DNA of 49,674 bases from an uncultured Flavobacteriales bacterium (GCA_905182775.1 CAJJCU010000007.1:1-49674), one strand, 5' to 3'. Counted from the stretch's first letter, positions 4,861 through 35,480 are shown. Numbers and translations: made by a program. Notes: generated by a model from the letters alone, not told the origin.

Positions 4861-7800
4861 ATGAAAAAAATACTACTTTTTAGTTTTGCATTGTTCGGTT
4901 GTTTTTCAATACTCAAAGCACAATGTGATTCTCCAACATCTGCAACCCCACTTTCTTTTTGTGGCGGCGCAACTGTTGAGCTCGAAGCATCTGCTTCACT
5001 AGCTTCTTTAACATACACCCTTAATATGGTTGATGCTTGGGGAGATGGATGGAACGGAAACGAAATAACAATTCTTGCGGATGGAGCTGTTGTTCTTGCA
5101 GATGCCACTATAGAAAATGGAACAAATGCATCAGCAACCTTTACTGTATTAGAAGGTTCTTTAATAACTGCAACTTGGGTTGCAGGAGGTTTTCAAAGTG
5201 AAGTTTCATTCGATATCTTAGATGAAACAAATGCAGTTATCTTTTCAGGAGCAGCCAATGATCCAATCAACTGGCCTGTTGCCACTGATGGTCCATATAC
5301 TCTAAATTGGTACGATGCAACTGGAGGAACTCTTTTAGGTTCAGGTGCAACCTTAGACGTTTCTGCCTTGGCTCCAACAACTGGTGCATATAGCTTCTTA
5401 GTAACTCAAACAGGCCTATTATGTACTGAAAGTGACCCTTTTGAAGTGGTTGTGAATATTTCAGACGTTAATGTTGAACTCTTGATTCAAGACGTTTCAT
5501 GTGTTGGTAATGCTGATGGAACATTTTCTATTGCTGCTGTACAATGCGGTACAGGTCCTTTTAGTTTTTCTGTTGACGGTGGGGCATTTGGTCCAGCACC
5601 TACAGATTTAGCCGCTGGAACTTATAGCGTAGTTGTAGAAGATGGGGCAACACTCCAAAGTTCTCCTATTGCAGTTGAAATAGGTACACCAGCAACTGTT
5701 ATTCCTAGTCCTCCTAGCGCGGAATCTCCTTTGACATTTTGTAGTGGTTCTGCCAGTATTACTTTAGAAGCTTTAGCTTCGGGATTACCTGTTGTATTTA
5801 CATTAAATATGTTTGACTCATGGGGAGATGGATGGAATGGAAATTCAATAACTGTATTTGCTGATGGCGTTCCAGTTTTGACAGACGCAACCATTACAGC
5901 TGGAGACTTTGAAACTGCTTCATTTGCAGCAAACGAAGGTGCTACTATTACAGCAACTTGGGTTGCAGGAGGTTTCCCTGCTGAAGTTTCTTTTGAAATT
6001 GAAGACCAAGATGGTCTTGTTGTTTATAACGGCGGATTTAATGATCCAATAGATTATTTGATTCCTGCTGGAAACTACCCTTTAAATTGGTATGACGCTG
6101 CAACAGCAGGTAATCTTGAAGGAAATGGATCACCTTTTGAAGCTGTTGGTTCAGGAGTTATGCCAGCTGCGGCTACAGGTACATACGACTTTTTCGTAAC
6201 TCAATCGAATGGCGGATGTGAAAGTATCGCTACTCAAGTTACAGTTGAGATTACAGATGTAAATGTAACGCTAAGTGTTACAGATGAAACATGTACTGAT
6301 TATACCAACGGTGGATTTGCAATTCTGGATACTTTGTGTGGTACAGCACCTTTCGTTTTCCAAGTAGATAGTGGAGCGTTTGATGTAGCTCCAAACTTAA
6401 CTGCTGGAACCTATTCAATTGTTGTTCGAGACGCTGATTCGCTTTTCAGTGAGCCGATCGAGATTACAATTAACACTATTGAAACGTCTATTCCTCCTTC
6501 ACCGGTGGCTGACTCTGCTGTTTATGCATGTGTTGGAGATTCGAGTATAGAGCTAACAGCTGTTGGAGATATTGCTACGACTGACTCTTTGTTGACAACT
6601 ATGGCTGCAGGTAATGGTTCTGAAGGAACAATGTTTGTTATTGAAGCGATTCAAGAAACTACGATTCAAGACTTTGCCCTAAACATGAATCCAGGGACCG
6701 GCGATGTCTCAATATGGTACCGTGCAGACGACTACCTTATTGTGCCGGGAGCAAATACAAGTGATGCTGGATGGATTTTAGTTGGGACAGCTACAGGTGT
6801 AGCATCTTCTTCGCCAAACTATACAAATATTCCTGTACCAGTAAATATTACAGTACCTGCGGGTGAAAGATACTCTTTTCACGTTCACTCGACGGGTGGT
6901 GTAGCGTACACTAACGGTGCTGGTTTAGGAAATGTTTTCGCTTCTAACGCGAGCTTTAATTTCATTGAGGGACACGGTGGAGCGCCTGCATTTAGTTGCA
7001 CCTTCGCACCAAGAGTCTTTAATGGTTTAATTCGATTTGAAGCAACTGAATCAATCGATATAGCTTGGTTCGATGCAGCGACTGATGGAGCTGTAATCGG
7101 AAACGGAACTCCTTTTGAATCTGTCGGAACCGCTATTCTGCCTGATGCCGATTCAGCAGGTACTTTCGACTTTTATGTCGCAAGTAACAACAACGGATGC
7201 TACAGTGCAGAAACTGTTGAAGTGAGTGTAAATATTTCTGATGTAAATGTTTATTTATCATCAGTAGATGCAACTTGTAATTCAGGAGCCGATGGTTCTT
7301 TCGTTATTGATTCTGTAGATTGCGGTGAGGCACCTTATACATTTTCTGTAGATGGTGGCGCAACGGGTCCAGCTCCAACAGATTTGAGCCCTGGCGTTTA
7401 CGAAGTTGTTGTATTTGATGGCCTTGGAGATTCTTCAAGTGTGTATTTTTTAACGATCGGAAGTGCCGCTGGCCCGTCTGATCTAGTCATTAATGCTATT
7501 CAGGATACAAGTGTAGAAGTTTCTTGGGTGTCTAATGGATCTGAAACAGGATGGACTGTTGAATACGGTGCACCAGGATTTACTCCAGGCGCAGGTGAAG
7601 AGATCGGTTCCGCAATGTTTACAGACACTGTTGGATTTATCAACAACTTATCCGGTAATACAAACTATGACTACTATGTAGTTGCTGATTGTGGTACTGG
7701 TGTTTATGGTGATTGGTCACTTATATCCTTTACAACGGATTGTGGGTTCTACATGGTTCCATTTATGGAAACCTTTGAAGATGATTCAGAAACACGTATT

Positions 7801-8997
7801 TGTTGGTACAACATCAATGAAGTTGGAGCTGATGATTGGACATATCAATCAGGTGATGGAGGTTTTGGTGTAGGTAATGCTACTGATGCTGCTTATGAAG
7901 GTGTGTTAAATGCAAGATTTGTAAGTTCATTTACACCATCAACTTCAAAATTAGCATCTCCTAGACTAGATCTTTCCGATCAAGATAGTGTTGCACTTGT
8001 ATTTGCATATGCTCAAGAAACATGGGGTGGTGATCAAAATACAACCAAGGTATATATGAGAAATACAGATACTGCAGATTGGGTTGAGATTGCATCCTAC
8101 GATATCGACACACCAGACTGGACATTAGATACTTTGTTTATCGTAGATACTACGGATCAACTTGAGATTGCTTTTGAAGGATCCAACAACTATGGATACT
8201 CAAATGTTATCGATCAAGTACAGGTTCTTCCATGTACAGTTGAGCCAGGTATCGACGGTAGCGCTAATGTTTGTAGAGCAGAAAACTTCATTGACTTGAA
8301 TACTTACATTACAGCCGGTGAAACTTATGGTTACTGGAGCTTCCCTGCAAATGAATCATTTGTAAGTGGTTCTACTGCTGATGTTCAATTCTTGCCTGCA
8401 GGAACACATGAATTCCTTTATGTTGTTAGTACACCTTGTACCTCTGATACCACAATTGCTTCTTTAGTGATTTACGGGCCATCATCAGCAGGAAACGACG
8501 GAGCTGATTCAGTTTGTTTAAATGAGCCTTACAACTTGTTAACCTCACTGTCAGGTACAATTGACTTAGGTGGTAGCTGGATTGACCCTCAAGGAAATGA
8601 CTTAGGAACTCCAAATATTACTGGTGGAACGATCCCGGGAAGTTTTAACTTCTCATACGTTACATCTAACGGAGTTTGTGAGGCAGATACTTCAACTGTT
8701 TTATTATTTGTTGATGGTAGCTGTGATTACCTAGGGTTACTAGAAGCAGATTTAAGCTTCTTCGAAATGTATCCTAATCCAACAAGTGGTATTCTTAACA
8801 TTCAGGCAACTGAAGCTGAAGGGTTCTTTAGCGTTGAGATTACTGACTTAAATGGAAGAATCATTGAAACATTCAAAAATTACATAACAGGAAATGAAAT
8901 CAAGTCTGTTGACTTGTCAACTTCAGAAACTGGAACGTACTTTGTGAAAGTTTACAATAACAATGTATTCAAAACGTTCAGAGTTGTTAAAAACTAA
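4861..8997 (+). CDS. Giant modular T9SS-secreted surface protein (three Ig-like units with nested cassettes + SprB-type repeats, FN3, MAM/choice-of-anchor-J-like domain, type A C-terminal sorting domain)
   Basis: 1378-aa ORF. Signal peptide MKKILLFSFALFGCFSILKAQ. Three SprB-like repeats (C.G..DG.F.I....CG..P..FSVDGG). FN3-like segment with NTNYDYYVVADCG. ETFEDD...W.Y domain. C-terminal YPNPTSGILNIQ...GTYFVKV...FRVVKN sorting domain. Confidence 0.85.
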   Translation: MKKILLFSFALFGCFSILKAQCDSPTSATPLSFCGGATVELEASASLASLTYTLNMVDAWGDGWNGNEITILADGAVVLADATIENGTNASATFTVLEGSLITATWVAGGFQSEVSFDILDETNAVIFSGAANDPINWPVATDGPYTLNWYDATGGTLLGSGATLDVSALAPTTGAYSFLVTQTGLLCTESDPFEVVVNISDVNVELLIQDVSCVGNADGTFSIAAVQCGTGPFSFSVDGGAFGPAPTDLAAGTYSVVVEDGATLQSSPIAVEIGTPATVIPSPPSAESPLTFCSGSASITLEALASGLPVVFTLNMFDSWGDGWNGNSITVFADGVPVLTDATITAGDFETASFAANEGATITATWVAGGFPAEVSFEIEDQDGLVVYNGGFNDPIDYLIPAGNYPLNWYDAATAGNLEGNGSPFEAVGSGVMPAAATGTYDFFVTQSNGGCESIATQVTVEITDVNVTLSVTDETCTDYTNGGFAILDTLCGTAPFVFQVDSGAFDVAPNLTAGTYSIVVRDADSLFSEPIEITINTIETSIPPSPVADSAVYACVGDSSIELTAVGDIATTDSLLTTMAAGNGSEGTMFVIEAIQETTIQDFALNMNPGTGDVSIWYRADDYLIVPGANTSDAGWILVGTATGVASSSPNYTNIPVPVNITVPAGERYSFHVHSTGGVAYTNGAGLGNVFASNASFNFIEGHGGAPAFSCTFAPRVFNGLIRFEATESIDIAWFDAATDGAVIGNGTPFESVGTAILPDADSAGTFDFYVASNNNGCYSAETVEVSVNISDVNVYLSSVDATCNSGADGSFVIDSVDCGEAPYTFSVDGGATGPAPTDLSPGVYEVVVFDGLGDSSSVYFLTIGSAAGPSDLVINAIQDTSVEVSWVSNGSETGWTVEYGAPGFTPGAGEEIGSAMFTDTVGFINNLSGNTNYDYYVVADCGTGVYGDWSLISFTTDCGFYMVPFMETFEDDSETRICWYNINEVGADDWTYQSGDGGFGVGNATDAAYEGVLNARFVSSFTPSTSKLASPRLDLSDQDSVALVFAYAQETWGGDQNTTKVYMRNTDTADWVEIASYDIDTPDWTLDTLFIVDTTDQLEIAFEGSNNYGYSNVIDQVQVLPCTVEPGIDGSANVCRAENFIDLNTYITAGETYGYWSFPANESFVSGSTADVQFLPAGTHEFLYVVSTPCTSDTTIASLVIYGPSSAGNDGADSVCLNEPYNLLTSLSGTIDLGGSWIDPQGNDLGTPNITGGTIPGSFNFSYVTSNGVCEADTSTVLLFVDGSCDYLGLLEADLSFFEMYPNPTSGILNIQATEAEGFFSVEITDLNGRIIETFKNYITGNEIKSVDLSTSETGTYFVKVYNNNVFKTFRVVKN
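4921..5697 (+). repeat. Intragenic tandem unit 1 (Ig-like domain with nested WGDGWNG cassette + SprB repeat)
   Basis: Residues 21-279 align along their whole length with residues 283-541. The DNA has diverged to roughly two-thirds identity by eye. Confidence 0.8.
5707..6483 (+). repeat. Intragenic tandem unit 2 (same architecture as unit 1)
   Basis: Residues 283-541. The WGDGWNG motif is encoded at 5821-5841; unit 1 has it at 5038-5058. Confidence 0.8.
6493..7464 (+). repeat. Intragenic tandem unit 3 (same Ig-like/SprB scaffold, different ~150-aa nested cassette)
   Basis: Residues 545-868. The scaffold motifs C.G.S.IELTA, W(Y/F)DA and the SprB repeat are conserved. The cassette at residues 577-728 is unrelated to the WGDGWNG module. 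Confidence 0.7.
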
Positions 8998-11003: not shown

Positions 11004-12815
11004 ATGAAAAATCTACTACTTACCGCTTGCATAGTAATTACTGCAAGTCTTGTTTGGGCGCAAAAGGCACCAAGAATCATCTCACTTGATGAGCTAATCA
11101 CTATTGAGAAACCCTCATTAGACACGGAAACTTTAAAAGACGAAGGCGTTACGATTTGGTCTGATGATTTCTCTGATGAATCCACATGGACACTTGATAA
11201 TAGTGGGCAAAACGGAGGAGCATTCGGATGGTCAATTGATGCTACATCGGATGGATGGTGGTCCAATGGAGGTATTAATTCTACGTCTGGAGGAAACTTT
11301 GCTGAGCTCTCCAATGGAGATGCTACAGTTGGAACACAAGCCTTAGATGTCATCTATACAATGACAACTGCAGCACCTATCGATGTTATCGCTTTGGCTG
11401 GATCGAACCAGGTGACATTAGAATTTGAACAATTCGGTGCTAGATTCAATGACCTTCAGCAGGTTTTATATAGCACTGACGGAGTCACTTTTACTCCAAT
11501 TGGAGATAATCTTGACAAGCCTGTTTTGTCTTCTGCAGGAGGCGAACCATACGACAACCCTGATTTAAAGCAGATTAACTTAGGAACTTTACTAACAGAA
11601 ACAAACGATCCCATTTGGATTCAATTCAGTTGGACAACAAATTTCCCTGCTTCTGCAGTAGAACCTAATGTTTGGATTACCTATGGCTGGTACATTGATG
11701 ATGTTCGGCTTGTTACAAATCCGGGTAATGACCTTGAGGTTACTGAGACGTTCTGGGGTTCAGAAGGGCTTAATTATTTTCAAATTCCAATCACTCAGGT
11801 TGCTCCAATTAATTTCGAAGCCGTGTTGTTTAATAGCGGTGTCACTGAGCAAACGAATATTACTTTAAATGCTGACGTTAACGGAGGATCCTTCACCGGT
11901 TCAAGCGACCCGATTTCTTTACAATCTTTAAGTATAGATACAATTAGTTTGAGCACATTGTTTACGCCCGATGCATTAGGAGATTACACTGTGATACAAA
12001 GTATCACTGCCGACTCAACGGATGATGTCCCTAGTAACAATGAAATCGGAGACATTAGCTTTTCTGTTGTAGACTATATTTATGCTCGCGATAACAACGA
12101 TGTTGGAGGAAGTACAAGTAATGGAATAGATGGATTTGAATCTGGGAACCTATTTGATATCTGGTCAGATCAGACATTAAAAGCAATTGACATAAGATTA
12201 CCCGGAGGAACAAACGGAACAGCGCTAGGAATAGAGTTCTACGTAAAGCTGTATAGCCTTGATGAAGCAGGTGAATTTGTTTATGTAAATGAATCAGACC
12301 CAATTATTATAACACAGCAAATGCTAAACACGATTCAAACAATAGAATTGTTGTTTCCTACAGATGTGTTTGCAAATACAACCTATTTGGCTGTAGTAGG
12401 GTCTTATGAAGAAGGATTCAGAGTTTCAACGGCAGGAACTTCAGATCCTCAGACTTCGTTCTTCCTAGACTTTGCTAACAATACTTGGTACTACCAAACA
12501 GGAACCCCTTTTGTTAGGTTAAATTTTGATCCAACGATTGGTATACAAGAAAATAGCGCTTCTTTTAACGCAGGAAATGTGTACCCGAATCCAGTAGATG
12601 GAGCGGCTTCTTTAAAGGTTTTCATGAACAATTCGCAGCAAATGACATTGAGCATAACTGACCTGTCAGGAAGGGTTGTCTATTCTAAGAACAAAACACT
12701 TCATTCAGGTGAAAACAATATTGTTTTAGCTTCAGGGAGTCTAAATAGCGGAATCTATACTGTTCTTTTAAATAGTGGATTGAGTACTATTTCTAGAAAA
12801 ATGGTAGTAAAGTAA
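11004..12815 (+). CDS. T9SS-secreted protein with an N-terminal MAM/choice-of-anchor-J-like domain and a type A C-terminal sorting domain
   Basis: Signal peptide LLLTACIVITASLVWAQ. WSDDFSDESTW...GWYIDDVRL domain. C-terminal VYPNPVDGAASLKV...GIYTVLL...RKMVVK. Confidence 0.8.
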   Translation: MKNLLLTACIVITASLVWAQKAPRIISLDELITIEKPSLDTETLKDEGVTIWSDDFSDESTWTLDNSGQNGGAFGWSIDATSDGWWSNGGINSTSGGNFAELSNGDATVGTQALDVIYTMTTAAPIDVIALAGSNQVTLEFEQFGARFNDLQQVLYSTDGVTFTPIGDNLDKPVLSSAGGEPYDNPDLKQINLGTLLTETNDPIWIQFSWTTNFPASAVEPNVWITYGWYIDDVRLVTNPGNDLEVTETFWGSEGLNYFQIPITQVAPINFEAVLFNSGVTEQTNITLNADVNGGSFTGSSDPISLQSLSIDTISLSTLFTPDALGDYTVIQSITADSTDDVPSNNEIGDISFSVVDYIYARDNNDVGGSTSNGIDGFESGNLFDIWSDQTLKAIDIRLPGGTNGTALGIEFYVKLYSLDEAGEFVYVNESDPIIITQQMLNTIQTIELLFPTDVFANTTYLAVVGSYEEGFRVSTAGTSDPQTSFFLDFANNTWYYQTGTPFVRLNFDPTIGIQENSASFNAGNVYPNPVDGAASLKVFMNNSQQMTLSITDLSGRVVYSKNKTLHSGENNIVLASGSLNSGIYTVLLNSGLSTISRKMVVK

Positions 12816-12836
12816 ACCTAAAATAAATCGTATTTT

Positions 12837-12862
12837 AAAGCCGGCTAATGCCGGCTTTTTTT
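12837..12862 (+). terminator. Rho-independent terminator
   Basis: Stem AAAGCCGGC / GCCGGCTTT with loop TAAT, followed by a T-run. It lies 22 nt after the stop at 12815 and contains the ORF-track ATG at 12848. Confidence 0.75.
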
Positions 12863-13300
12863 ATGATGGAAATTGAACTCGGATATCTCGGATTATTTAT
12901 AACTAGCTTTTTAGCAGCTACATTTTTACCCATCACATCTGAGGTGTTCCTAATCAGCATGCTTGCATTGGGTTTTGACCCATGGCTGACCCTTATTTAT
13001 GCCAGCTTGGGGAATTCTGCAGGGGGTTGGTTCAACTATGCTATAGGACGCCTAGGAAACCCCAGATGGTTAAAGCGACTTAGAATTTCTTCTGAAAAAA
13101 TCACAAAGTGGGAAGGGAAAGTTCATAAATATGGCCATTGGCTTGGTTTTCTAAGCTGGTTGCCATTCGTTGGGGATGCGATGGCTGTTGCTCTTGGATT
13201 TTTCAGAGCTCCATTACTACCCAGTTTCTTTTTTATACTCTTAGGGAAGTTTTTACGTTACCTCATCATAGTGATGCTTTTCAATCTCGATTGGCTATAG
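12863..13300 (+). CDS. YqaA-family (DedA/SNARE-associated-like) inner membrane protein
   Basis: LFITSFLAATFLPITSEV...SLGNSAGGWFNYAIGRLG matches the YqaA pattern. The start was moved to ATG 12863 because the 12848 ATG lies inside the terminator hairpin. Confidence 0.7.
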   Translation: MMEIELGYLGLFITSFLAATFLPITSEVFLISMLALGFDPWLTLIYASLGNSAGGWFNYAIGRLGNPRWLKRLRISSEKITKWEGKVHKYGHWLGFLSWLPFVGDAMAVALGFFRAPLLPSFFFILLGKFLRYLIIVMLFNLDWL

Positions 13301-20540: not shown

Positions 20541-20562
20541 AGACTTGTGATTTTAACTTATG

Positions 20563-20570
20563 CAAATATA
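20563..20570 (-). promoter_or_regulatory. -7 promoter box TATATTTG (minus strand)
   Basis: CAAATATA on the + strand, 22 nt upstream of the RidA start. This is the first gene of a three-gene minus-strand cluster. Confidence 0.35.
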
Positions 20571-20602
20571 ATACAAGCGCGTTATAAAAGGGTTATTATC
20601 CG

Positions 20603-20610
20603 TAACTTTG
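20603..20610 (+). promoter_or_regulatory. -7 promoter box TAACTTTG
   Basis: Exact TAnnTTTG match, 5 nt upstream of the ATG at 20616. This argues against the ORF-track start at 20547. Confidence 0.4.
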
Positions 20611-20615
20611 AGCTA

Positions 20616-21563
20616 ATGGATCACTCAATTAAAAGTTCGCTGAGCGTTGTTATTCCAACATTCAACGAAGAAGGAAATATAGAGCTCTTGTATACCAAAT
20701 TAAAAGAGACAATAGCGCCTTTAGGTCTAGAAGCGGTGGAATATATATTTGTAGATGATGGAAGCCACGATCGATCCTTAGAAATTATTAAAAAACTAGC
20801 TCATGAGGATGCCCAGGTGAAATACCTGTCTTTTTCTAGAAATTTCGGTCACCAGCTGGCTTTGAAAGCAGGTTTAGATCACGCACGTTTTCAAGGAGTT
20901 GTTTCCTTAGATGCAGACCTACAGCACCCCGTTGAACTGATCCCGGAAATGATCCGTAAATGGAAGTCAGGAGCAGCAGTTGTTTATTCAAAACGAAAGG
21001 ACAAAGGGCTTCCGTGGTTCAAACGCACAAGTTCCAAACTTTTTTACCGCCTTGTAAACTCATTAAGTCAGGTCAAACTTGAAGACGGTGTTGCAGACTT
21101 TAGGTTACTCGATCAAAAAGTAATAATCGCATTAAGAGAATATAAGGAAAGCAATCTTTTTATTCGAGGAATTATTCCCTCACTTGGTTTTAAGCAAGAA
21201 GCCATAGAATATATTCCAAATGAAAGGTTCGCAGGGGAAACAAAGTACTCCTTTTCAAAAATGATTCGATTTGCACTTACAGGGATTACTTCTCTAAGCG
21301 CAAAACCACTTTATTTTTCAATTTATTTTGGACTCTTCTTTGCAATGCTAGCCTTTGTATATAGTGTCTATGCCATTTATGTCTTTGCATTTGGTTACGA
21401 AACGGTGCCCGGTTGGACCTCAATTATTGCAAGTATTTTATTAATTGGTGGCCTTCAGTTAATCATGATCGGTATCATCGGGGTCTACTTAGGTAAAGTT
21501 TTCGCCCAAAGTAAGCAGCGCCCGCATTATATTGTGGAAGAAAAAAACATCCTAAATGATTAA
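20616..21563 (+). CDS. GT2 polyprenyl-phosphate glycosyltransferase (GtrB/ArnC/DPM1-like, two C-terminal TM helices)
   Basis: LSVVIPTFNEE, VDDGSHD, DADLQHP. Two hydrophobic helices lie near the C-terminus (LYFSIYFGLFFAMLAFVY, IIASILLIGGLQLIMIGIIGVYL). Confidence 0.85.
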   Translation: MDHSIKSSLSVVIPTFNEEGNIELLYTKLKETIAPLGLEAVEYIFVDDGSHDRSLEIIKKLAHEDAQVKYLSFSRNFGHQLALKAGLDHARFQGVVSLDADLQHPVELIPEMIRKWKSGAAVVYSKRKDKGLPWFKRTSSKLFYRLVNSLSQVKLEDGVADFRLLDQKVIIALREYKESNLFIRGIIPSLGFKQEAIEYIPNERFAGETKYSFSKMIRFALTGITSLSAKPLYFSIYFGLFFAMLAFVYSVYAIYVFAFGYETVPGWTSIIASILLIGGLQLIMIGIIGVYLGKVFAQSKQRPHYIVEEKNILND

Positions 21564-23025
21564 GCCTTTTTTAGTTAAATATAAGTGGCTCCTCCTTGTT
21601 TTTGTGTTTTTCGGGGGGCTATTTGCATCCATAAGTTTTGTGAACCATTACAATTTCAGAACCTACGGTTGGGATTTAGGGATCAATCAAAATGCCCTTT
21701 TTGACTATGCACATTTCAAATGGAATGACTGCATGATTATGCAACCCTCGTTCGATAATGTTTTGGCAGATCACTTCTCTTTATATCCCTTGTTAATTTC
21801 ACCATTATATTGGGTTTTTGGAAGCTATACAATGCTCATATTTCAATGGGCAGGAATTCTTTTCGGCGGTCTAGGAGTTTATCGATTTGTGCGTTTTATT
21901 TCAAATAACAAAAAACTTGCAACATTCGCCGTGGTGCATTTTTTCTGTATTTGGGGCATCTATTCTGCGCTGAGTTTTGATTATCACGACAACGTTGTAG
22001 GTGCGATGTTTGTGCCTTGGTTTCTATACTATTACAAGAAAAAGGAACTCGGCAAGGCACTGTTTGTTTTTGTGTTATTATTGATTTCGAAGGAGAACAT
22101 GGCCCTATGGGGTGGGTTTATAGTTTTAGGAATCAGCCTGAGACATCTCTTAAACAAGGAATGGAAAGAACTCAGGTTGAGTCTATTATTATCATTTGGA
22201 GCATTTTTATACTTTATAATCATCTTAAAACTGGTGATCCCTGCGCTGTCAAATACAGATGGAGTCTATCTTCATCACTCATTCAATGCGCTAGGAAGTA
22301 ACTTTGGAGAAGTGATCGTTAATATCATTAAGCATCCTATTCGTGCCATCGAGTTATTATTTGAGAACCACTCAGGAGATTCTTTTTTTGATGGAATTAA
22401 ATCCGAAACCTATTTGGCACTAATTCTTGCAGGGGGTTGGGCTATGTTTTTTTATCCCGAATACCTGATTATGATTATTCCAATTATAGCACAAAAGATG
22501 TATAATGACCTGCCGATCAGGTGGGGAATAAGTGACCATTACTCGATTGAATTCGCGCCCATCATCGTTATTGCACTCTATACTTTTTTCAATGAGCTTA
22601 AAGACAAAAAAATAAAATTAGCGGGAATGATGATCGCTATTTGTGCCATCTCTTCTTTTAAATTTATGGAAAATAGAACCTCAGAATATTATAAAAAAAA
22701 CAACACAAGGTTCTATTCCCCTGAGCATTGGAAAAGAAAATTTGATGTCAGATCTGTGCATCAGGTTCTAAAAACCATTCCCGATTCATTGCGTGTTAGT
22801 GCCCAATCGCAATTGGCACCTCATCTCGCTTTTCGTGATTACATTTATCATTATCCTTATATAGGTGATGCAAACTGTATTGCTCTTTTAACGGCAGAAG
22901 AAAACAAATACCCATTCAATGAGGAAACCTATCAGGCAGAAGTTAAGCGTTTAATAAACAGTGATGAGTGGTCTGTCTTTGTCCAAACCCAAGCTGTGCT
23001 TGTTCTTGTAAAAAAATCAAAATGA
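21556..23025 (+). CDS. Polytopic membrane protein, DUF2079-like (putative GT-C-type glycosyltransferase)
   Basis: 489 aa with at least 10 hydrophobic helices. The first-loop acidic motif YGWDLGINQNALFDY resembles the DUF2079 signature. The start overlaps the GT2 stop (ATGATTAA). Confidence 0.5.
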   Translation: MIKPFLVKYKWLLLVFVFFGGLFASISFVNHYNFRTYGWDLGINQNALFDYAHFKWNDCMIMQPSFDNVLADHFSLYPLLISPLYWVFGSYTMLIFQWAGILFGGLGVYRFVRFISNNKKLATFAVVHFFCIWGIYSALSFDYHDNVVGAMFVPWFLYYYKKKELGKALFVFVLLLISKENMALWGGFIVLGISLRHLLNKEWKELRLSLLLSFGAFLYFIIILKLVIPALSNTDGVYLHHSFNALGSNFGEVIVNIIKHPIRAIELLFENHSGDSFFDGIKSETYLALILAGGWAMFFYPEYLIMIIPIIAQKMYNDLPIRWGISDHYSIEFAPIIVIALYTFFNELKDKKIKLAGMMIAICAISSFKFMENRTSEYYKKNNTRFYSPEHWKRKFDVRSVHQVLKTIPDSLRVSAQSQLAPHLAFRDYIYHYPYIGDANCIALLTAEENKYPFNEETYQAEVKRLINSDEWSVFVQTQAVLVLVKKSK

Positions 23026-25388
23026 TACGACCTTTTTCAATATATCAGACAAAGCGACGTTATTGCAGTGTGAAAACTTTTATGCTTATTCTTACCCTTG
23101 TCATGGGGAACTATTTTTGGGCCCAAATTGGGATGGGTCAATGGAGATTGCATGTGGCTTCAGGAAATGCCATCGACGTTGTCATGGCTGAAAACACAGT
23201 TTTTACAGCCTATTCAAATGGCTTACACGTTATGAATCGGGATACGGAAGAAGAAGAGCTTCTTACTGATGTTAATGGTTTGTCAGACATTGAAATCTCT
23301 TCACTCTATTATGATTCCATAGAATCATGCGTACTTGTTGGCTATTCCAATGGAAATATAGATAAAATTACCGCTTCCTCAATTTACAATATCGCAGCAA
23401 TAAAATTGGCTCAGATACCTAATTCTAAGCGTATTAATCGATTTTTAAGGTTTGGTGACTATGTCTATGTAGCTACCGACTTTTGTATCGCTAAATTGGA
23501 TCTAAATAAAGATGAAATCAAAGACACTTATTACCCTACGAATGGCAATCAACCGATACTAGACCTCAGTTTTTCTTCAGATACTATTTTTGCATTAAGC
23601 GCAGACAAGCTTAAGTATGGCTTGATTGATAATCCAGCATTACCAGATGTAAGTCAATGGGAAGTAGATCCTAGGTTGCCCGTTCAAATAGAACATTCGT
23701 ATGTTGAAATTGAAAAATTCAACGGCAAACAATTCGTGCTCTTTCAAAATGAAAGTTATGGCATGGATAGCGTTTTTTACCTCACATCGACAGGTAAAAC
23801 TTTGCTTACTGATGTACCATTTTCACTTGAAATCAATTCTATAAACATTTTAGATGACACAACCTTTGCGGTCAATATGGAGGGCGGTGTTTATATCTAC
23901 AATAGCTTATTGACCAATCCTCTTTCCTACAACTCAAACAATTTTTTCATTTGGATTTCGCCGGTTAGAACGGTTAGAAGTGATGAAGGCATCTGGTCTG
24001 CTGACAACGGAAACGGATTGTTATTATTTAAATCGGGAATAAGTTATGCGCGTTTCCCTATTGTGGGGCCCTACAATAACAGTTTTTACTCTATGGATTG
24101 GCAGGACAATACACTTGCAATAGCCAGCGGAAGATTATTAGGAAAGCTCCCTTCCTTTAGCACAAATGGCCTCCATGTTTTTAATGATGAGGCGTGGACC
24201 TTTCACAATAATCAATCTGTCGAAGAATGGCAAGAAAAAAGCATTTGGGATTTCATAGATATTTCGGTAAATCCAAACAACCCAATGCAGTATGCAGCAT
24301 CCACATACTCTGAAGAGCCATTGACTATCTTTAATGGAGAAAATGTTCAGTTATACGACGATGAAAATTCGACGTTACAGTTTACAGAAATAGGTAATGG
24401 GTGGAGCTTGGCTTCTGATGTTTGTTACGACACCAAGGATAATTTATGGGTTCTTAATGGCTACACAGAAAGGCCTTTAAACCTGCTGGATAAGGATCAA
24501 GTTTGGAGAAACTTTGATTGTGGATCGAGTGCTCGAAATATCTATACAACCAAAATGATTATTGACTTCGAGGATCACATTTGGTTCGCTTCCGAAGAAA
24601 AAGGATTGTTCGGGTACAATTACAACAATACCATTGACAACGAAAATGATGATGAAACCGTTCATGTTTTTACAGGAATAAATTCAGGGAATCTGCCATC
24701 TCCTAACGTAACGGCAATCGCTGCAGATTTTGATGGAGAAATTTGGATTGGAACAGATGCTGGATTTGCCATTCTTTATAATGCGGCAAGTGCCTTTGGA
24801 AGTAATCCCGGAGACTATGATGTGCAAAGAGTCAAAGTAACCTTTGAGGGCAATGTAGAATATGTTTTGGGAAACACACACATCACAGATATAGAAGTAG
24901 ATGGGGGAAATCGAAAATGGATTGCAACAGCCAATGCAGGTATTTTATTGTTGAGTCCAGATGGATCAGAAATTCTTGAACAGTTTACCACAGAAAACTC
25001 ACCTTTAATTTCTAATAATATATTCGATCTTAAGCTCGATCAAAATACAGGGGAACTTTACATTATTACTGACAACGGATTGGTTAGTTACCGTTCCAGC
25101 GCTAGCTATGAAGACCCTTCCTATGAGACCTGTACCGTGTTTCCAAATCCAGTAAGACCAAATTATGCTGGACCTGTTACAATCCAAGGTATTAGGTACA
25201 ATAGCGATGTAAAAATAACGGATGCTTCAGGTGGATTGGTTTACAAAACCACATCAAATGGAGGGACCGCAACATGGAATTGTCAAGCTTTAAATGGGCA
25301 ACGCGTAGCTACTGGGGTTTATTATATTTGGACTGCAACCAATGTCGGAAAAGACAAAAAAGTTGGAAAGGTCCTGATTGTAAACTAG
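23022..25388 (+). CDS. porZ: PorZ-like T9SS component (double beta-propeller with Reg_prop-type repeats + C-terminal beta-sandwich CTD)
   Basis: ATGA start/stop overlap with the upstream gene. Signal-like FMLILTLVMGNYFWAQ. Repeated motifs HIWFASEEKGLFGY, EIWIGTDAGFAILY, KWIATANAGILLL, ELYIITDNGLVSY. C-terminus FPNPVRPNYAGPVTIQGI...VKITDASGGLVY...GGTATWNC...GQRVATGVYYIW. Confidence 0.55.
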   Translation: MIRPFSIYQTKRRYCSVKTFMLILTLVMGNYFWAQIGMGQWRLHVASGNAIDVVMAENTVFTAYSNGLHVMNRDTEEEELLTDVNGLSDIEISSLYYDSIESCVLVGYSNGNIDKITASSIYNIAAIKLAQIPNSKRINRFLRFGDYVYVATDFCIAKLDLNKDEIKDTYYPTNGNQPILDLSFSSDTIFALSADKLKYGLIDNPALPDVSQWEVDPRLPVQIEHSYVEIEKFNGKQFVLFQNESYGMDSVFYLTSTGKTLLTDVPFSLEINSINILDDTTFAVNMEGGVYIYNSLLTNPLSYNSNNFFIWISPVRTVRSDEGIWSADNGNGLLLFKSGISYARFPIVGPYNNSFYSMDWQDNTLAIASGRLLGKLPSFSTNGLHVFNDEAWTFHNNQSVEEWQEKSIWDFIDISVNPNNPMQYAASTYSEEPLTIFNGENVQLYDDENSTLQFTEIGNGWSLASDVCYDTKDNLWVLNGYTERPLNLLDKDQVWRNFDCGSSARNIYTTKMIIDFEDHIWFASEEKGLFGYNYNNTIDNENDDETVHVFTGINSGNLPSPNVTAIAADFDGEIWIGTDAGFAILYNAASAFGSNPGDYDVQRVKVTFEGNVEYVLGNTHITDIEVDGGNRKWIATANAGILLLSPDGSEILEQFTTENSPLISNNIFDLKLDQNTGELYIITDNGLVSYRSSASYEDPSYETCTVFPNPVRPNYAGPVTIQGIRYNSDVKITDASGGLVYKTTSNGGTATWNCQALNGQRVATGVYYIWTATNVGKDKKVGKVLIVN

Positions 25389-34037: not shown

Positions 34038-35480
34038 CTATATTGGCCTACGTTCAACAACAATGATTCCCGCTGCAAATGACAATAAAAGAACGTTTCT
34101 GAAAATGAGATTGGCGTAAGACCCACCAATATTTACATTTATGGCAATCGCATAAATCAATAAGGCGCCACCCGTATATAAAACAAACTTTTTCAAATTA
34201 TAGGGTATCGGATAATGTTTTTGCCCAAGAAGGTAGGACAGCACCATTTGAAAAAAGTAGACAATCAATGTTGCCCAAGCACATGCCATGTAACCATATT
34301 TCGGGATAAACAATACGTTGACAAATACTGTGATTAAAGCACCGGATATAGCAATATAGGCACCATATTTTGTTTTACCACTTAGCTTATACCAAATACT
34401 TTGGTTGTAATAAATGCCCAGAAAAACATTTGCAAGAAGTAAAATAGGGACTACTTTCAAACCAATCCAATAGGACTCGTTCTGAATGAAATGCTTGAAA
34501 ACATCCAGGTTAAGGCTTACAAGCAAAAATACACAGCAAACCAATCCAATAAAGGCATTCATGACCTTTACATAAGTATGGTTCTTATTTTCTTTATTCA
34601 TTTGACTAAAGAAGAAAGGTTCTGCGGCATACCTGTAAGCCTGCAAAAAGATAGCTACAAGCATTGCTAATTTATAAGAAGCACTGTAAATTCCCACTTG
34701 AGACTCTGCGTAATTCAAGGATTCCGGGATCAAAGGGTCATAAAGCATCTGCTTTAATAGGATTCGGTCTAATGTCTCATTAATAATTCCCGCAAAACCA
34801 GCTATTGCCAAAGGAAGTGAATAAAAAATCATCTTTTTAAACAAGGCCTTATCGAAAGGAGTCGTAAGCTTAAAGGATTTATATAATAGCAGCGGCTTAA
34901 CCAAAGAAGACACAAGATTTGCGACTAAGATATAAAACACCCCTTTTTCTGGGTTTTCCGGAGAGACAAAACCAAGCATTAAAATTAAGTTCAAGGCAAT
35001 ATTTACACCTATAGCACTAAATTGAATCAAAGAAAAACGTAGTGCTTTTTCTTCAGCCCTAAGTTTCGCCAAGGGCAAAGAAGAAATCGCATCAATACCT
35101 ACTATGGCTCCCAGCAATAAGATGTATTCACCATGATGCTCAAAGAGCAGCATGCGAGCCAAATCCTGATGGAAAATTGCCAGAACTATAAAAAACAACC
35201 CATTTACAAACAGTAAAGAAATAAGGGCCGTCGAAAAGGTTTTTTCTTTATCCCCGTCTTTTTGAATAAACTTAAAAAATGCCGTCTCCATGCCAAATGT
35301 CAATAGCACAATCAGAAAAGCCACCCAAGCATAAAGTTCAGAAACGACGCCGTAATCCGCTGGATTGACAAAAACAGAAGTATACAATGGGACCAAAAGG
35401 TAATTCAGGAGCCTTCCCAAAATGGAAGACAAACCATAAATTGCCGTTTGCCCAAAAAGTCTCTTTACAGGACTTGTCAT
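34038..35480 (-). CDS. Oligosaccharide/polysaccharide flippase family protein (MOP superfamily, Wzx-like)
   Basis: 480 aa with about 14 hydrophobic helices. The N-terminus GQTAIYGLSSILGRLLNYLLVPLYT is typical of this family. Confidence 0.7.
   Translation of the reverse strand: MTSPVKRLFGQTAIYGLSSILGRLLNYLLVPLYTSVFVNPADYGVVSELYAWVAFLIVLLTFGMETAFFKFIQKDGDKEKTFSTALISLLFVNGLFFIVLAIFHQDLARMLLFEHHGEYILLLGAIVGIDAISSLPLAKLRAEEKALRFSLIQFSAIGVNIALNLILMLGFVSPENPEKGVFYILVANLVSSLVKPLLLYKSFKLTTPFDKALFKKMIFYSLPLAIAGFAGIINETLDRILLKQMLYDPLIPESLNYAESQVGIYSASYKLAMLVAIFLQAYRYAAEPFFFSQMNKENKNHTYVKVMNAFIGLVCCVFLLVSLNLDVFKHFIQNESYWIGLKVVPILLLANVFLGIYYNQSIWYKLSGKTKYGAYIAISGALITVFVNVLFIPKYGYMACAWATLIVYFFQMVLSYLLGQKHYPIPYNLKKFVLYTGGALLIYAIAINVNIGGSYANLIFRNVLLLSFAAGIIVVERRPI

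Follow-up and report, generated by a model that had tools for sequence, protein, structure and literature searches.

A predicted GtrB/GT-C glycosylation cassette lies in the porZ operon of an uncultured Crocinitomicaceae bacterium and varies among its relatives

In a 49,674-nt stretch of DNA from an uncultured bacterium (GCA_905182775.1, CAJJCU010000007.1:1-49674; hereafter, the window), we found that two genes of lipid-linked sugar transfer share an operon with porZ, which encodes a type IX secretion system (T9SS) protein, the glycan-binding member of the attachment complex. The first of them (gene 1) encodes a GtrB-type glycosyltransferase and the second (gene 2) a DUF2079 membrane protein with a predicted GT-C fold; porZ itself is gene 3. 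The window is a contig from a marine metagenome (ENA ERZ1699364) and occurs in TARA assemblies as well. Its nearest named relatives are Crocinitomicaceae/Cryomorphaceae metagenome-assembled genomes (MAGs), and the host is an uncultured marine Crocinitomicaceae bacterium of the order Flavobacteriales. Our initial annotation had suggested that the three genes are a possible dedicated module feeding the anchoring of T9SS cargo. The module and its predicted co-transcription with porZ were borne out; its role as a core or dedicated anchoring pathway was not, since sister genomes have PorZ without the gene pair and near-identical genomes carry non-homologous genes in its place. The module is accessory and strain-variable. 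The pair would represent one allele of a hypervariable cassette site beside porZ, the content of which is exchanged by recombination.

The porZ operon and its products

The listing of open reading frames (ORFs) and direct reading of the sequence gave three co-directional genes in the frames and at the coordinates first annotated, and both of the stop-to-start overlaps between them are real (Table 1). The -7 box TAACTTTG ends 5 nt 5' of the gene 1 ATG, and the predicted mRNA would be leaderless or nearly leaderless for gene 1. By itself, the motif is frequent, with 24 copies on the plus and 25 on the minus strand of the window. The copy ahead of gene 1, which had been read as a promoter element from the beginning, is kept in position in five relatives (loci L005, L006, L008, L009, and L011), and more distant loci carry a TAAnTTCG variant 5-9 nt ahead of the glycosyltransferase ATG. 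A general scan for sigma-70 promoters and terminators was uninformative (19 promoter-like sites against 20 expected).

The position of the two genes became apparent from the comparison with L010 and L062, two sister genomes that lack them. The block TGCAAATATAATACAAGC...AAAAGGGTTATTATC..TAACTTTGA is conserved in the five relatives and also in these two genomes, where alignment of the RidA-porZ spacer places it ~105 nt ahead of the porZ ATG. Homology between the window and the two sisters breaks just past TAACTTTGA (20611) and picks up again at ~23035. Therefore, genes 1 and 2 occupy the 5' leader of porZ. As judged from this alignment, the promoter of gene 1 corresponds to the porZ promoter of the cassette-less sister genomes, so the two genes are predicted to be transcribed whenever porZ is. 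This position is the strongest evidence for obligatory co-transcription with porZ.

The start of porZ bears on the translational coupling that had been proposed for both junctions. All five close relatives in the alignment keep the ATG at 23022. PorZ of L010 and L062 starts at what corresponds to residues 12-13 of the window protein, with no start codon there, and the nearest in-frame alternative is GTG 23070. With this start, the junction of genes 2 and 3 could be a 45-nt gap. The three genes form an operon either way.

Table 1. Position of the operon features in the window.
Feature	Position	Strand	Remarks
Promoter block	20558..20611	+	Ends in Bacteroidota-type -7 box TAACTTTG (20603-20610)
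Gene 1, GtrB-type polyprenyl-phosphate glycosyltransferase (GT2, GT-A fold, two C-terminal transmembrane helices), 315 aa	20616..21563	+	
Gene 1/gene 2 overlap ATGATTAA	21556..21563	+	Gene 2 ATG and gene 1 TAA
Gene 2, DUF2079 polytopic membrane protein, predicted GT-C fold and C-terminal alpha/beta periplasmic domain, 489 aa	21556..23025	+	
Gene 2/gene 3 overlap ATGA	23022..23025	+	Gene 3 ATG and gene 2 TGA
Gene 3, PorZ, T9SS attachment-complex glycan-binding protein, two beta-propellers and retained C-terminal domain, 788 aa	23022..25388	+	Alternative start GTG 23070
Cassette extent relative to cassette-less sisters	20612..23034	+	~2.42 kb, within the porZ 5' leader

The assignment of gene 1 as a GtrB-like GT2 enzyme was upheld. 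Its product shows the motifs VIPTFNEE, VDDGSHD, and DADLQHP and matches PF00535 at 3e-28 (99.2 bits against a cutoff of 23.3). The full-length match to Synechocystis GtrB (PDB 5ekp; 1.3e-72, 248 bits) aligns residues 8-309 with 27-328 and includes the C-terminal membrane helices, which appear in the orthologue cluster as two hydrophobic stretches at ~242-290. The ArnC structure is more distant (134 bits). Among NCBIfam models, the best match was PgfS (NF047588; 290.5 bits, below its equivalog cutoff of 500), and the ArnC model (NF007986) scored 143.8 bits, below its cutoff of 529. Gene 1 is thus predicted to load a sugar onto undecaprenyl phosphate.

Gene 2, likewise assigned correctly from the beginning, matches PF09852 (DUF2079) over residues 31-437 at 9e-49 (167.2 bits against a gathering score of 28.2). 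Its fold had been left as a matter to be checked. An AlphaFold2 model built on 26 homologues reached a predicted local distance difference test score (pLDDT) of 90 and a predicted template modeling score (pTM) of 0.90. In a Foldseek comparison with the PDB, the top 16 matches were all GT-C enzymes (STT3/OST, DPY19, ArnT, PglB, and ALG9), at probabilities of 0.99-1.00 and TM-scores of 0.43-0.52; the scores against ArnT (5f15) were 0.52/0.48, the latter being the best target-normalized value. The acidic motif YGWDLGINQNALFDY in the first loop after the first transmembrane helix (TM1) was also confirmed, with D40 and D50 invariant in the 26 homologues (43-79% identity). The modeled protein thus has the GT-C glycosyltransferase fold. 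A PDB sequence search with the DUF2079 profile (A2) gave no match, and fold comparison alone succeeded; a fold-level GT-C assignment of DUF2079 was not found in the literature searched. DUF2079 is a member of neither the PMT nor the YfhO family. In each of four other Bacteroidota contexts with DUF2079 orthologues (44-49% identity), a GT2 gene lies within three genes; the partner is GtrB-sized in L092 and L174 (308-314 aa) and shorter in L093 and L175 (240-250 aa).

For gene 3, the PorZ-like designation can be made firmer. The NCBIfam equivalog model T9SS_PorZ (NF052228) scored 534.3 bits against a cutoff of 260, covering model positions 3-757 of 757, and PF21544 scored 94 bits. Porphyromonas gingivalis PorZ (PDB 5m11) was matched by sequence at 7e-68 and was the top Foldseek match (4e-40 over 769 columns), followed by BT4663 double propellers. 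The PorZ model was of medium confidence only (pLDDT 71), and C-terminal domain (CTD) profiles matched weakly, below cutoff. By these sequence and fold matches, gene 3 is a true PorZ orthologue. The partner genes porU, porV, and porQ do not lie within the 49.7-kb window.

In the course of the PorZ searches, several homologues of ~1360 aa (P0305, P0318, and others) were considered as candidate GT-C-PorZ fusions and rejected, as Pfam showed tandem duplicated PorZ propellers. P0305, P0318, P0333, P0356, P0363, and P0377 (~1300-1380 aa) have two matches each to the PorZ N-terminal propeller.

A variable cassette site in the Crocinitomicaceae

In a scan of species-representative genomes for PorZ, the best 80 loci all belonged to Crocinitomicaceae (PorZ identity 49-92%). 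ORFs around each locus were called and clustered (clusters are numbered with the prefix c), and cluster representatives were annotated. Slot counts are from the 68 loci in which the sequence upstream of porZ extends for 2.5 kb or more. Genes for lipid-carrier glycosylation were present within 6 kb upstream of porZ in 57 of these 68 genomes, and within 6 kb downstream in none (0/68). When PorZ sequences were grouped at 30% divergence, 15 of 21 groups had such a gene. The linkage to porZ within the family is thus more than chance. Seven MAGs in the set (L015, L016, L026, L042, L053, L059, and L076) are labeled Chitinophaga pinensis, Chryseobacterium gleum, or Polynucleobacter meluiroseus; their PorZ is 51-57% identical to that of the window, their synteny is that of Crocinitomicaceae, and they are probably mislabelled bins.

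The content of the slot differs widely. Most frequent was GT2 alone on the porZ strand (15 loci), followed by UbiA with a HAD-IB phosphatase, c21, and c22, divergent from porZ (13 loci), and by the GT2-DUF2079 arrangement of the window (10 loci). GT2 was accompanied by c26 in 7 loci and by c26 and c45 in 4. Two loci had UbiA and the HAD-IB phosphatase with c21 only or c22 only, and two had PMT_2. Four arrangements were found in one locus each, namely a YfhO-like gene alone, GT2 with DUF2079 and YfhO-like, GT2 with c110, DUF2079, and YfhO-like, and GT2 on the opposite strand (L040). The slot was empty in 11 loci. Between GT2 and porZ, related genomes thus have DUF2079, c26, c26 and c45, c110 with DUF2079 and YfhO-like, or nothing. 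The modules are non-homologous, yet their predicted chemistry is of one type, as all would use sugars linked to a lipid carrier.

The junctions with porZ are tight. Adjacent GT2 and porZ genes overlap by 11 nt in 13 loci and by 8 nt in 2 more, and in the two that remain, they are spaced by +10 nt (L046) and +238 nt (L028). DUF2079 and porZ are spaced by -4 to +39 nt when the first ATG is used, two loci being called at -52 from an upstream GTG. Same-strand gaps measure 9 to 56 nt for c26-porZ and 52 to 56 nt for c45-porZ. On the outer side, the contexts vary (RidA, c57, c44, or c9).

Families c26, c21, c22, c45, and c110 are unnamed polytopic proteins with a conserved acidic motif in the first loop, and we do not claim the GT-C fold for all of them. 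No Pfam, NCBIfam, or PDB family matched c21 or c22, and PDB sequence searches with the profiles of c21/c26 (A4) and c22 (A5) gave no match. Comparison of the cassette membrane families by hhalign was mostly insignificant; only c26 against c21 reached 86%. The UbiA protein has decaprenyl-phosphate phosphoribosyltransferase as its best match (212 bits against a cutoff of 234). As judged from these gene contents, the UbiA/HAD cassettes (15 genomes) suggest a polyprenyl-phospho-pentose donor pathway in Bacteroidota. The UbiA-type loci include L052, L053, L065-L067, L070-L072, L076, L077, and L081-L083 (for example, L071:4740-9921).

Ordering the loci by PorZ similarity revealed different cassettes within groups of less than 15% PorZ divergence. 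The clearest case is L022, L025, and L026, whose flanks are 95-100% identical in protein and which carry three different cassettes (GT2-DUF2079, UbiA-HAD-c22, and GT2-c110-DUF2079-YfhO, respectively). L033 and L035, and L016 and L028, likewise differ in their cassettes. Complete absence was also observed: L010 and L062, the nearest genomes outside the species cluster of the window (PorZ identity 72-73%), have the same flanks and no cassette, and a cassette present in L031 and L037 is missing from L039. Where the cassettes of two genomes differ, their PorZ proteins are 89-94% identical.

In L022, L025, and L026, the synonymous divergence (pS) of porZ is 0.22-0.29 and rises up to 0.6 in codons 300-450. 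Over codons 1-450, pS is 0.2-0.6, compared to 0-0.12 in the flanking genes; for L022 and L025, the flanking values are 0.00 (RidA), 0.03-0.06 (c50 and h120), and 0.12 (c41). The high pS of porZ beside lower values in the flanks indicates that recombination tracts of cassette exchange reach into the propeller-coding part of porZ. In L033 and L035, PorZ differences are concentrated in the first 50 residues only. Within the porZ of L022, L025, and L026, a patch at codons 250-450, which join the two propellers, has pS up to 0.6 and nonsynonymous divergence (pN) up to 0.22, and the last 300 codons are almost identical. Either mosaicism through recombination or fast evolution of a ligand face may account for the patch. 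The same three loci have c50 directly upstream of their cassette; this protein of 331 aa carries a type A CTD (Por_Secre_tail, 1.6e-12; for example, L025:5004-5996), and the gene order is cargo gene, cassette, porZ.

Proposed role of the cassette and alternatives to it

GtrB-type enzymes make undecaprenyl-phosphate-linked sugars at the cytoplasmic face of the membrane, and GT-C enzymes use such donors at its outer face. Acceptors known for GT-C enzymes include O-antigen (Gtr), lipid A (ArnT), teichoic acids (YfhO), and proteins (PMT). In the window, the GtrB-type enzyme would take a nucleotide sugar as donor and charge undecaprenyl phosphate with the sugar on the cytoplasmic side. The lipid-linked sugar would then be flipped by a flippase encoded outside the operon, and the DUF2079 protein would pass it to an acceptor on the periplasmic side. 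The most likely acceptor would be a side position on the lipopolysaccharide (LPS)-type polysaccharide that is bound by PorZ and attached by PorU to type A CTD cargo. The cassette would thus decorate the anchor glycan in a strain-variable and non-essential way and would not build the anchor.

Two published findings bear on this proposal. P. gingivalis PorZ recognizes a side-branch of the anchor polysaccharide (Man-Man-phosphate), and PorZ specificity differs between species (PMC8545088). In Cytophaga hutchinsonii, loss of the O-antigen ligase mislocalizes 67% of CTD proteins (PMC11611037). A side-branch is what a GtrB/GT-C pair adds. Taken with the anatomy of the operon and the recurrence of the linkage, this makes decoration of the LPS-type glycan of cargo anchoring our best reading of genes 1 and 2. 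It is tentative, and we hold it to be nearly, though not quite, probable; that the decorated glycan is the ligand of PorZ is plausible. The protein identities, the GT-C fold of the model, the operon anatomy, and the variable linkage across the family are shown here; the sugar, the flippase, the acceptor, and any effect on PorZ binding are inferred.

A number of observations weigh against decoration of the anchor glycan. The same-flank sisters L010, L062, and L039 have PorZ and no cassette, so PorZ function needs no cassette, and the PorZ identity across different cassettes argues against strict co-variation of ligand and receptor. Together, dispensability and this identity argue against a strict, essential "feeding" role. 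We found no sequence feature pointing to the acceptor, and a gene for a GtrA-type flippase (PF04138) is absent from the operon and from the 10 kb that flank it on each side. In the four other Bacteroidota contexts, PorZ adjoins none of the DUF2079-GT2 pairs; the conserved pair is GT2-DUF2079, not DUF2079-PorZ. A GtrB-like GT2 was found upstream of porZ in 0/53 control loci outside the family, DUF2079 and UbiA are absent from 86 diverse PorZ loci, and in 49 of 79 diverse Bacteroidota loci, porZ is directly followed by recO. Moreover, variable glycan loci often adjoin unrelated conserved genes that act merely as recombination anchors.

The 86 loci of this control comprise six distant PorZ look-ups and 80 metagenome loci retrieved with a profile of distant PorZ, the metagenome set having 85 PorZ sequences in 44 clusters at 50% divergence. 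The look-ups (a Tenuifilaceae genome, a contig labeled "Pedobacter", a Bacteroidales MAG, two Flavobacteriales MAGs, and one other) had no GT2 and no annotated GT-C gene upstream of porZ, and in five of the six, recO lay immediately downstream. Basal groups of Crocinitomicaceae retain porZ-recO (c29, RecO_C), which looks like the ancestral porZ neighborhood that was lost in the lineage of the window. The exact order GT2-DUF2079-porZ was found in 10 of 68 Crocinitomicaceae genomes and in 0/86 loci elsewhere. Thus, the synteny did not hold across Flavobacteriia and Bacteroidota, and it is confined to part of one family. The porZ-recO order was read from the set L086-L091 and L094-L173 (for example, L086:8001-11026), in which a ~195-aa gene is frequent just upstream and has a Ham1-like annotation in L086 only.

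The main rival explanation, which we consider rather doubtful, is that the cassette is an ordinary strain-variable island for surface glycan (O-antigen- or capsule-like), that porZ serves as its recombination anchor with co-transcription being incidental, and that its product takes no part in T9SS attachment. Such hitch-hiking would explain why the cassette is dispensable and differs between near-identical genomes, why recombination tracts enter porZ as the pS data indicate, why most Bacteroidota lineages lack the association, and why DUF2079-GT2 pairs elsewhere work without PorZ. It also has a parallel in Escherichia coli, where recombination tracts enter gnd beside the O-antigen loci. It accounts less well for the one-sided placement: the cassette always lies on the porZ side, in the promoter-porZ interval or overlapping the start, and never within 6 kb downstream. 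Nor does it explain why the linkage to porZ outlasts the changes of the outer flank noted above.

The third point against hitch-hiking is that unrelated lineages placed GT-C or Gtr-like genes beside porZ independently. Three other lineages have GT-C, Gtr-like, or other glycan-modification genes there. In one of them, L129 and L113 encode YfhO-type proteins of 918 and 969 aa, one directly and one two genes upstream of porZ, which are strong homologues (632 and 407 bits) of the YfhO-like protein in Crocinitomicaceae cassettes; the PorZ of these two loci reaches only 33-34% identity to that of any family member. In L144, a PMT_2 protein is encoded directly upstream of porZ. L168, L171, and L140 have PorZ 68-71% identical to one another and ~30% identical to that of the window, and carry variable genes directly downstream: genes for GT2, GtrA, and a STELLO-like protein and an 8-TM protein in L168, a GtrB-like GT2 in L171, and, in L140, a radical SAM gene ahead of one for an OafA-type acyltransferase. 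By a rough estimate that assumes a few GT-C genes per genome, well under one would be expected in the two porZ-flanking positions of ~50-80 loci.

Three of the control loci deserve separate mention. In L168:519-7755, porZ is followed by genes for GT2, a GtrA-family flippase, a STELLO-like glycosyltransferase, an unannotated 490-aa protein with eight transmembrane helices, and a radical SAM/SPASM protein. In L091, an unannotated 619-aa protein with nine transmembrane helices and a WD...YYAY motif past TM1 is encoded just after porZ-recO (11144-13000, minus strand) and may be another GT-C-like neighbor. The 512-aa product of an unannotated gene upstream of porZ in L090 proved not to be a membrane protein.

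A more specific form of anchor-glycan decoration, which we regard as unlikely, is that the cassette writes a species- or strain-specific side-branch of the anchor glycolipid and that PorZ reads this branch, thereby selecting the lipid for cargo attachment; the writer (the cassette) and the reader (the propeller region of PorZ, codons 1-450) would be matched and exchanged together by recombination. If so, the glycan code of T9SS surface anchoring would be swappable, and phages or grazers might select on it.

Protein O-glycosylation, in which the GT-C enzyme would modify Ser/Thr residues of proteins in the periplasm or on the surface with the lipid-linked sugar, T9SS cargo and PorZ itself being possible targets, appears more unlikely still. 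On this reading, the gene pair would resemble actinobacterial Ppm1/Pmt or the streptococcal systems GtrB/PgtC2 and PgfS/PgfM1, and the alternative cassettes include genes for PMT_2 and YfhO-like proteins. PgfS is also the best NCBIfam match of gene 1, at a non-equivalog score, and gene 1 is much closer to GtrB. Streptococcal GtrB with YfhO-type GT-C enzymes glycosylates Ser/Thr-rich regions of proteins, the acceptors of PgtC2 and PgfM1 being proteins (PMC12041528). In the window, neither PorZ nor the two CTD cargo proteins has a Ser/Thr-rich disordered stretch (maximum 12 S/T per 30 residues), and DUF2079 falls outside the PMT and YfhO families.

Finally, addition of the sugar to lipid A or the inner core, tuning charge or resistance independently of anchoring as ArnC/ArnT do, is very unlikely: ArnC is the second-best relative of gene 1 by structure and by sequence, and gene 2 has ArnT among its best fold matches, but gene 1 is far nearer to GtrB, no ArnA/B/D genes (for a sugar nucleotide of the 4-amino-4-deoxy-L-arabinose type) are present in the operon or within 10 kb, and hypervariability between near-identical genomes would fit the decoration of an outer glycan better than lipid A chemistry.

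Related systems and neighboring genes

The GtrB-type enzyme, the GT-C-fold enzyme, and PorZ are each known kinds of part. A close analogy in logic is with the Gtr modules of Shigella and Salmonella, in which the flippase GtrA, the undecaprenyl-phosphate-glucose synthase GtrB, and a serotype-specific GT-C enzyme (GtrC) add a lipid-linked monosaccharide to a surface glycan outside the cytoplasm. Both have a GtrB-type enzyme followed by a polytopic GT-C protein in a strain-variable slot. In contrast to the Gtr modules, the window has no GtrA, its transferase is DUF2079 (elsewhere replaced by other unnamed families), and the genes lie inside the porZ transcription unit with no prophage context; a GtrA gene does occur in the unrelated porZ-adjacent cassette of L168.

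With the anionic LPS (A-LPS), PorZ, and PorU system of P. gingivalis, the window shares a true PorZ orthologue by the matches above, and a side-branch is the kind of structure that a GtrB/GT-C pair makes. In P. gingivalis, the genes for A-LPS (Wbp/Vim pathway, PorS, Wzy, WaaL, and GtfB-F) encode cytoplasmic-face or ligase-type enzymes and are scattered over the genome, whereas the module of the window is linked, accessory, and variable. We know of no A-LPS genes that form a GtrB/GT-C pair adjoining porZ, and none were found in the literature searched. A GtrB/GT-C pair inside a porZ transcription unit was likewise not found there.

The Firmicutes systems CsbB/YfhO, GtlA/GtlB, GtrB/PgtC2, and PgfS/PgfM1 also combine a GT2 enzyme having two C-terminal transmembrane helices with a GT-C membrane enzyme, and YfhO-like proteins occur as alternative cassette genes on the porZ side. 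Those systems serve teichoic acid or protein glycosylation; here, the host is Gram-negative, the transferase is DUF2079 and not YfhO, and the linkage is to a T9SS gene. The UbiA variant, which is not in the window, resembles the decaprenyl-phospho-ribose/arabinose pathway of mycobacteria and Pseudomonas (UbiA-type DPPR synthase, phosphatase, and GT-C arabinosyltransferases) in combining UbiA, a HAD-IB phosphatase, and polytopic proteins in the 15 family genomes. It differs in that no DprE1/E2 epimerase genes were seen and that c21 and c22 match no known family. Neither this UbiA/HAD variant nor a hypervariable porZ-adjacent cassette site was found in the literature searched.

Beyond Porphyromonas, these results offer a route towards the glycan that anchors T9SS cargo; they are a lead, not proof, as to what anchors secreted proteins there. 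Genomes with the same flanks and the cassette present, absent, or replaced are natural "isogenic" comparisons, which would make the anchor glycan and the ligand specificity of PorZ directly testable. DUF2079 gains a fold-level assignment as a GT-C glycosyltransferase, together with a GtrB-type partner. The unnamed polytopic families and the UbiA/HAD polyprenyl-phospho-pentose-like module are candidate periplasmic glycosylation systems.

Elsewhere in the window, the two type A CTD cargo genes reported in the initial annotation are present at 4861-8997 and 11004-12815. The second (603 aa) is followed by a gene for a small VTT/DedA-family membrane protein (150 aa), the pair spanning 11004-13300. 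This pair (clusters c8-c9) is kept in 26 family loci and directly abuts the cassette in UbiA-type loci; DedA proteins have been linked to undecaprenyl-phosphate recycling. A gene of the Polysacc_synt family (Wzx-like flippase) lies ~9 kb downstream of porZ (34038-35480, minus strand), and PorS of P. gingivalis, which is required for A-LPS, is a Wzx-like protein.

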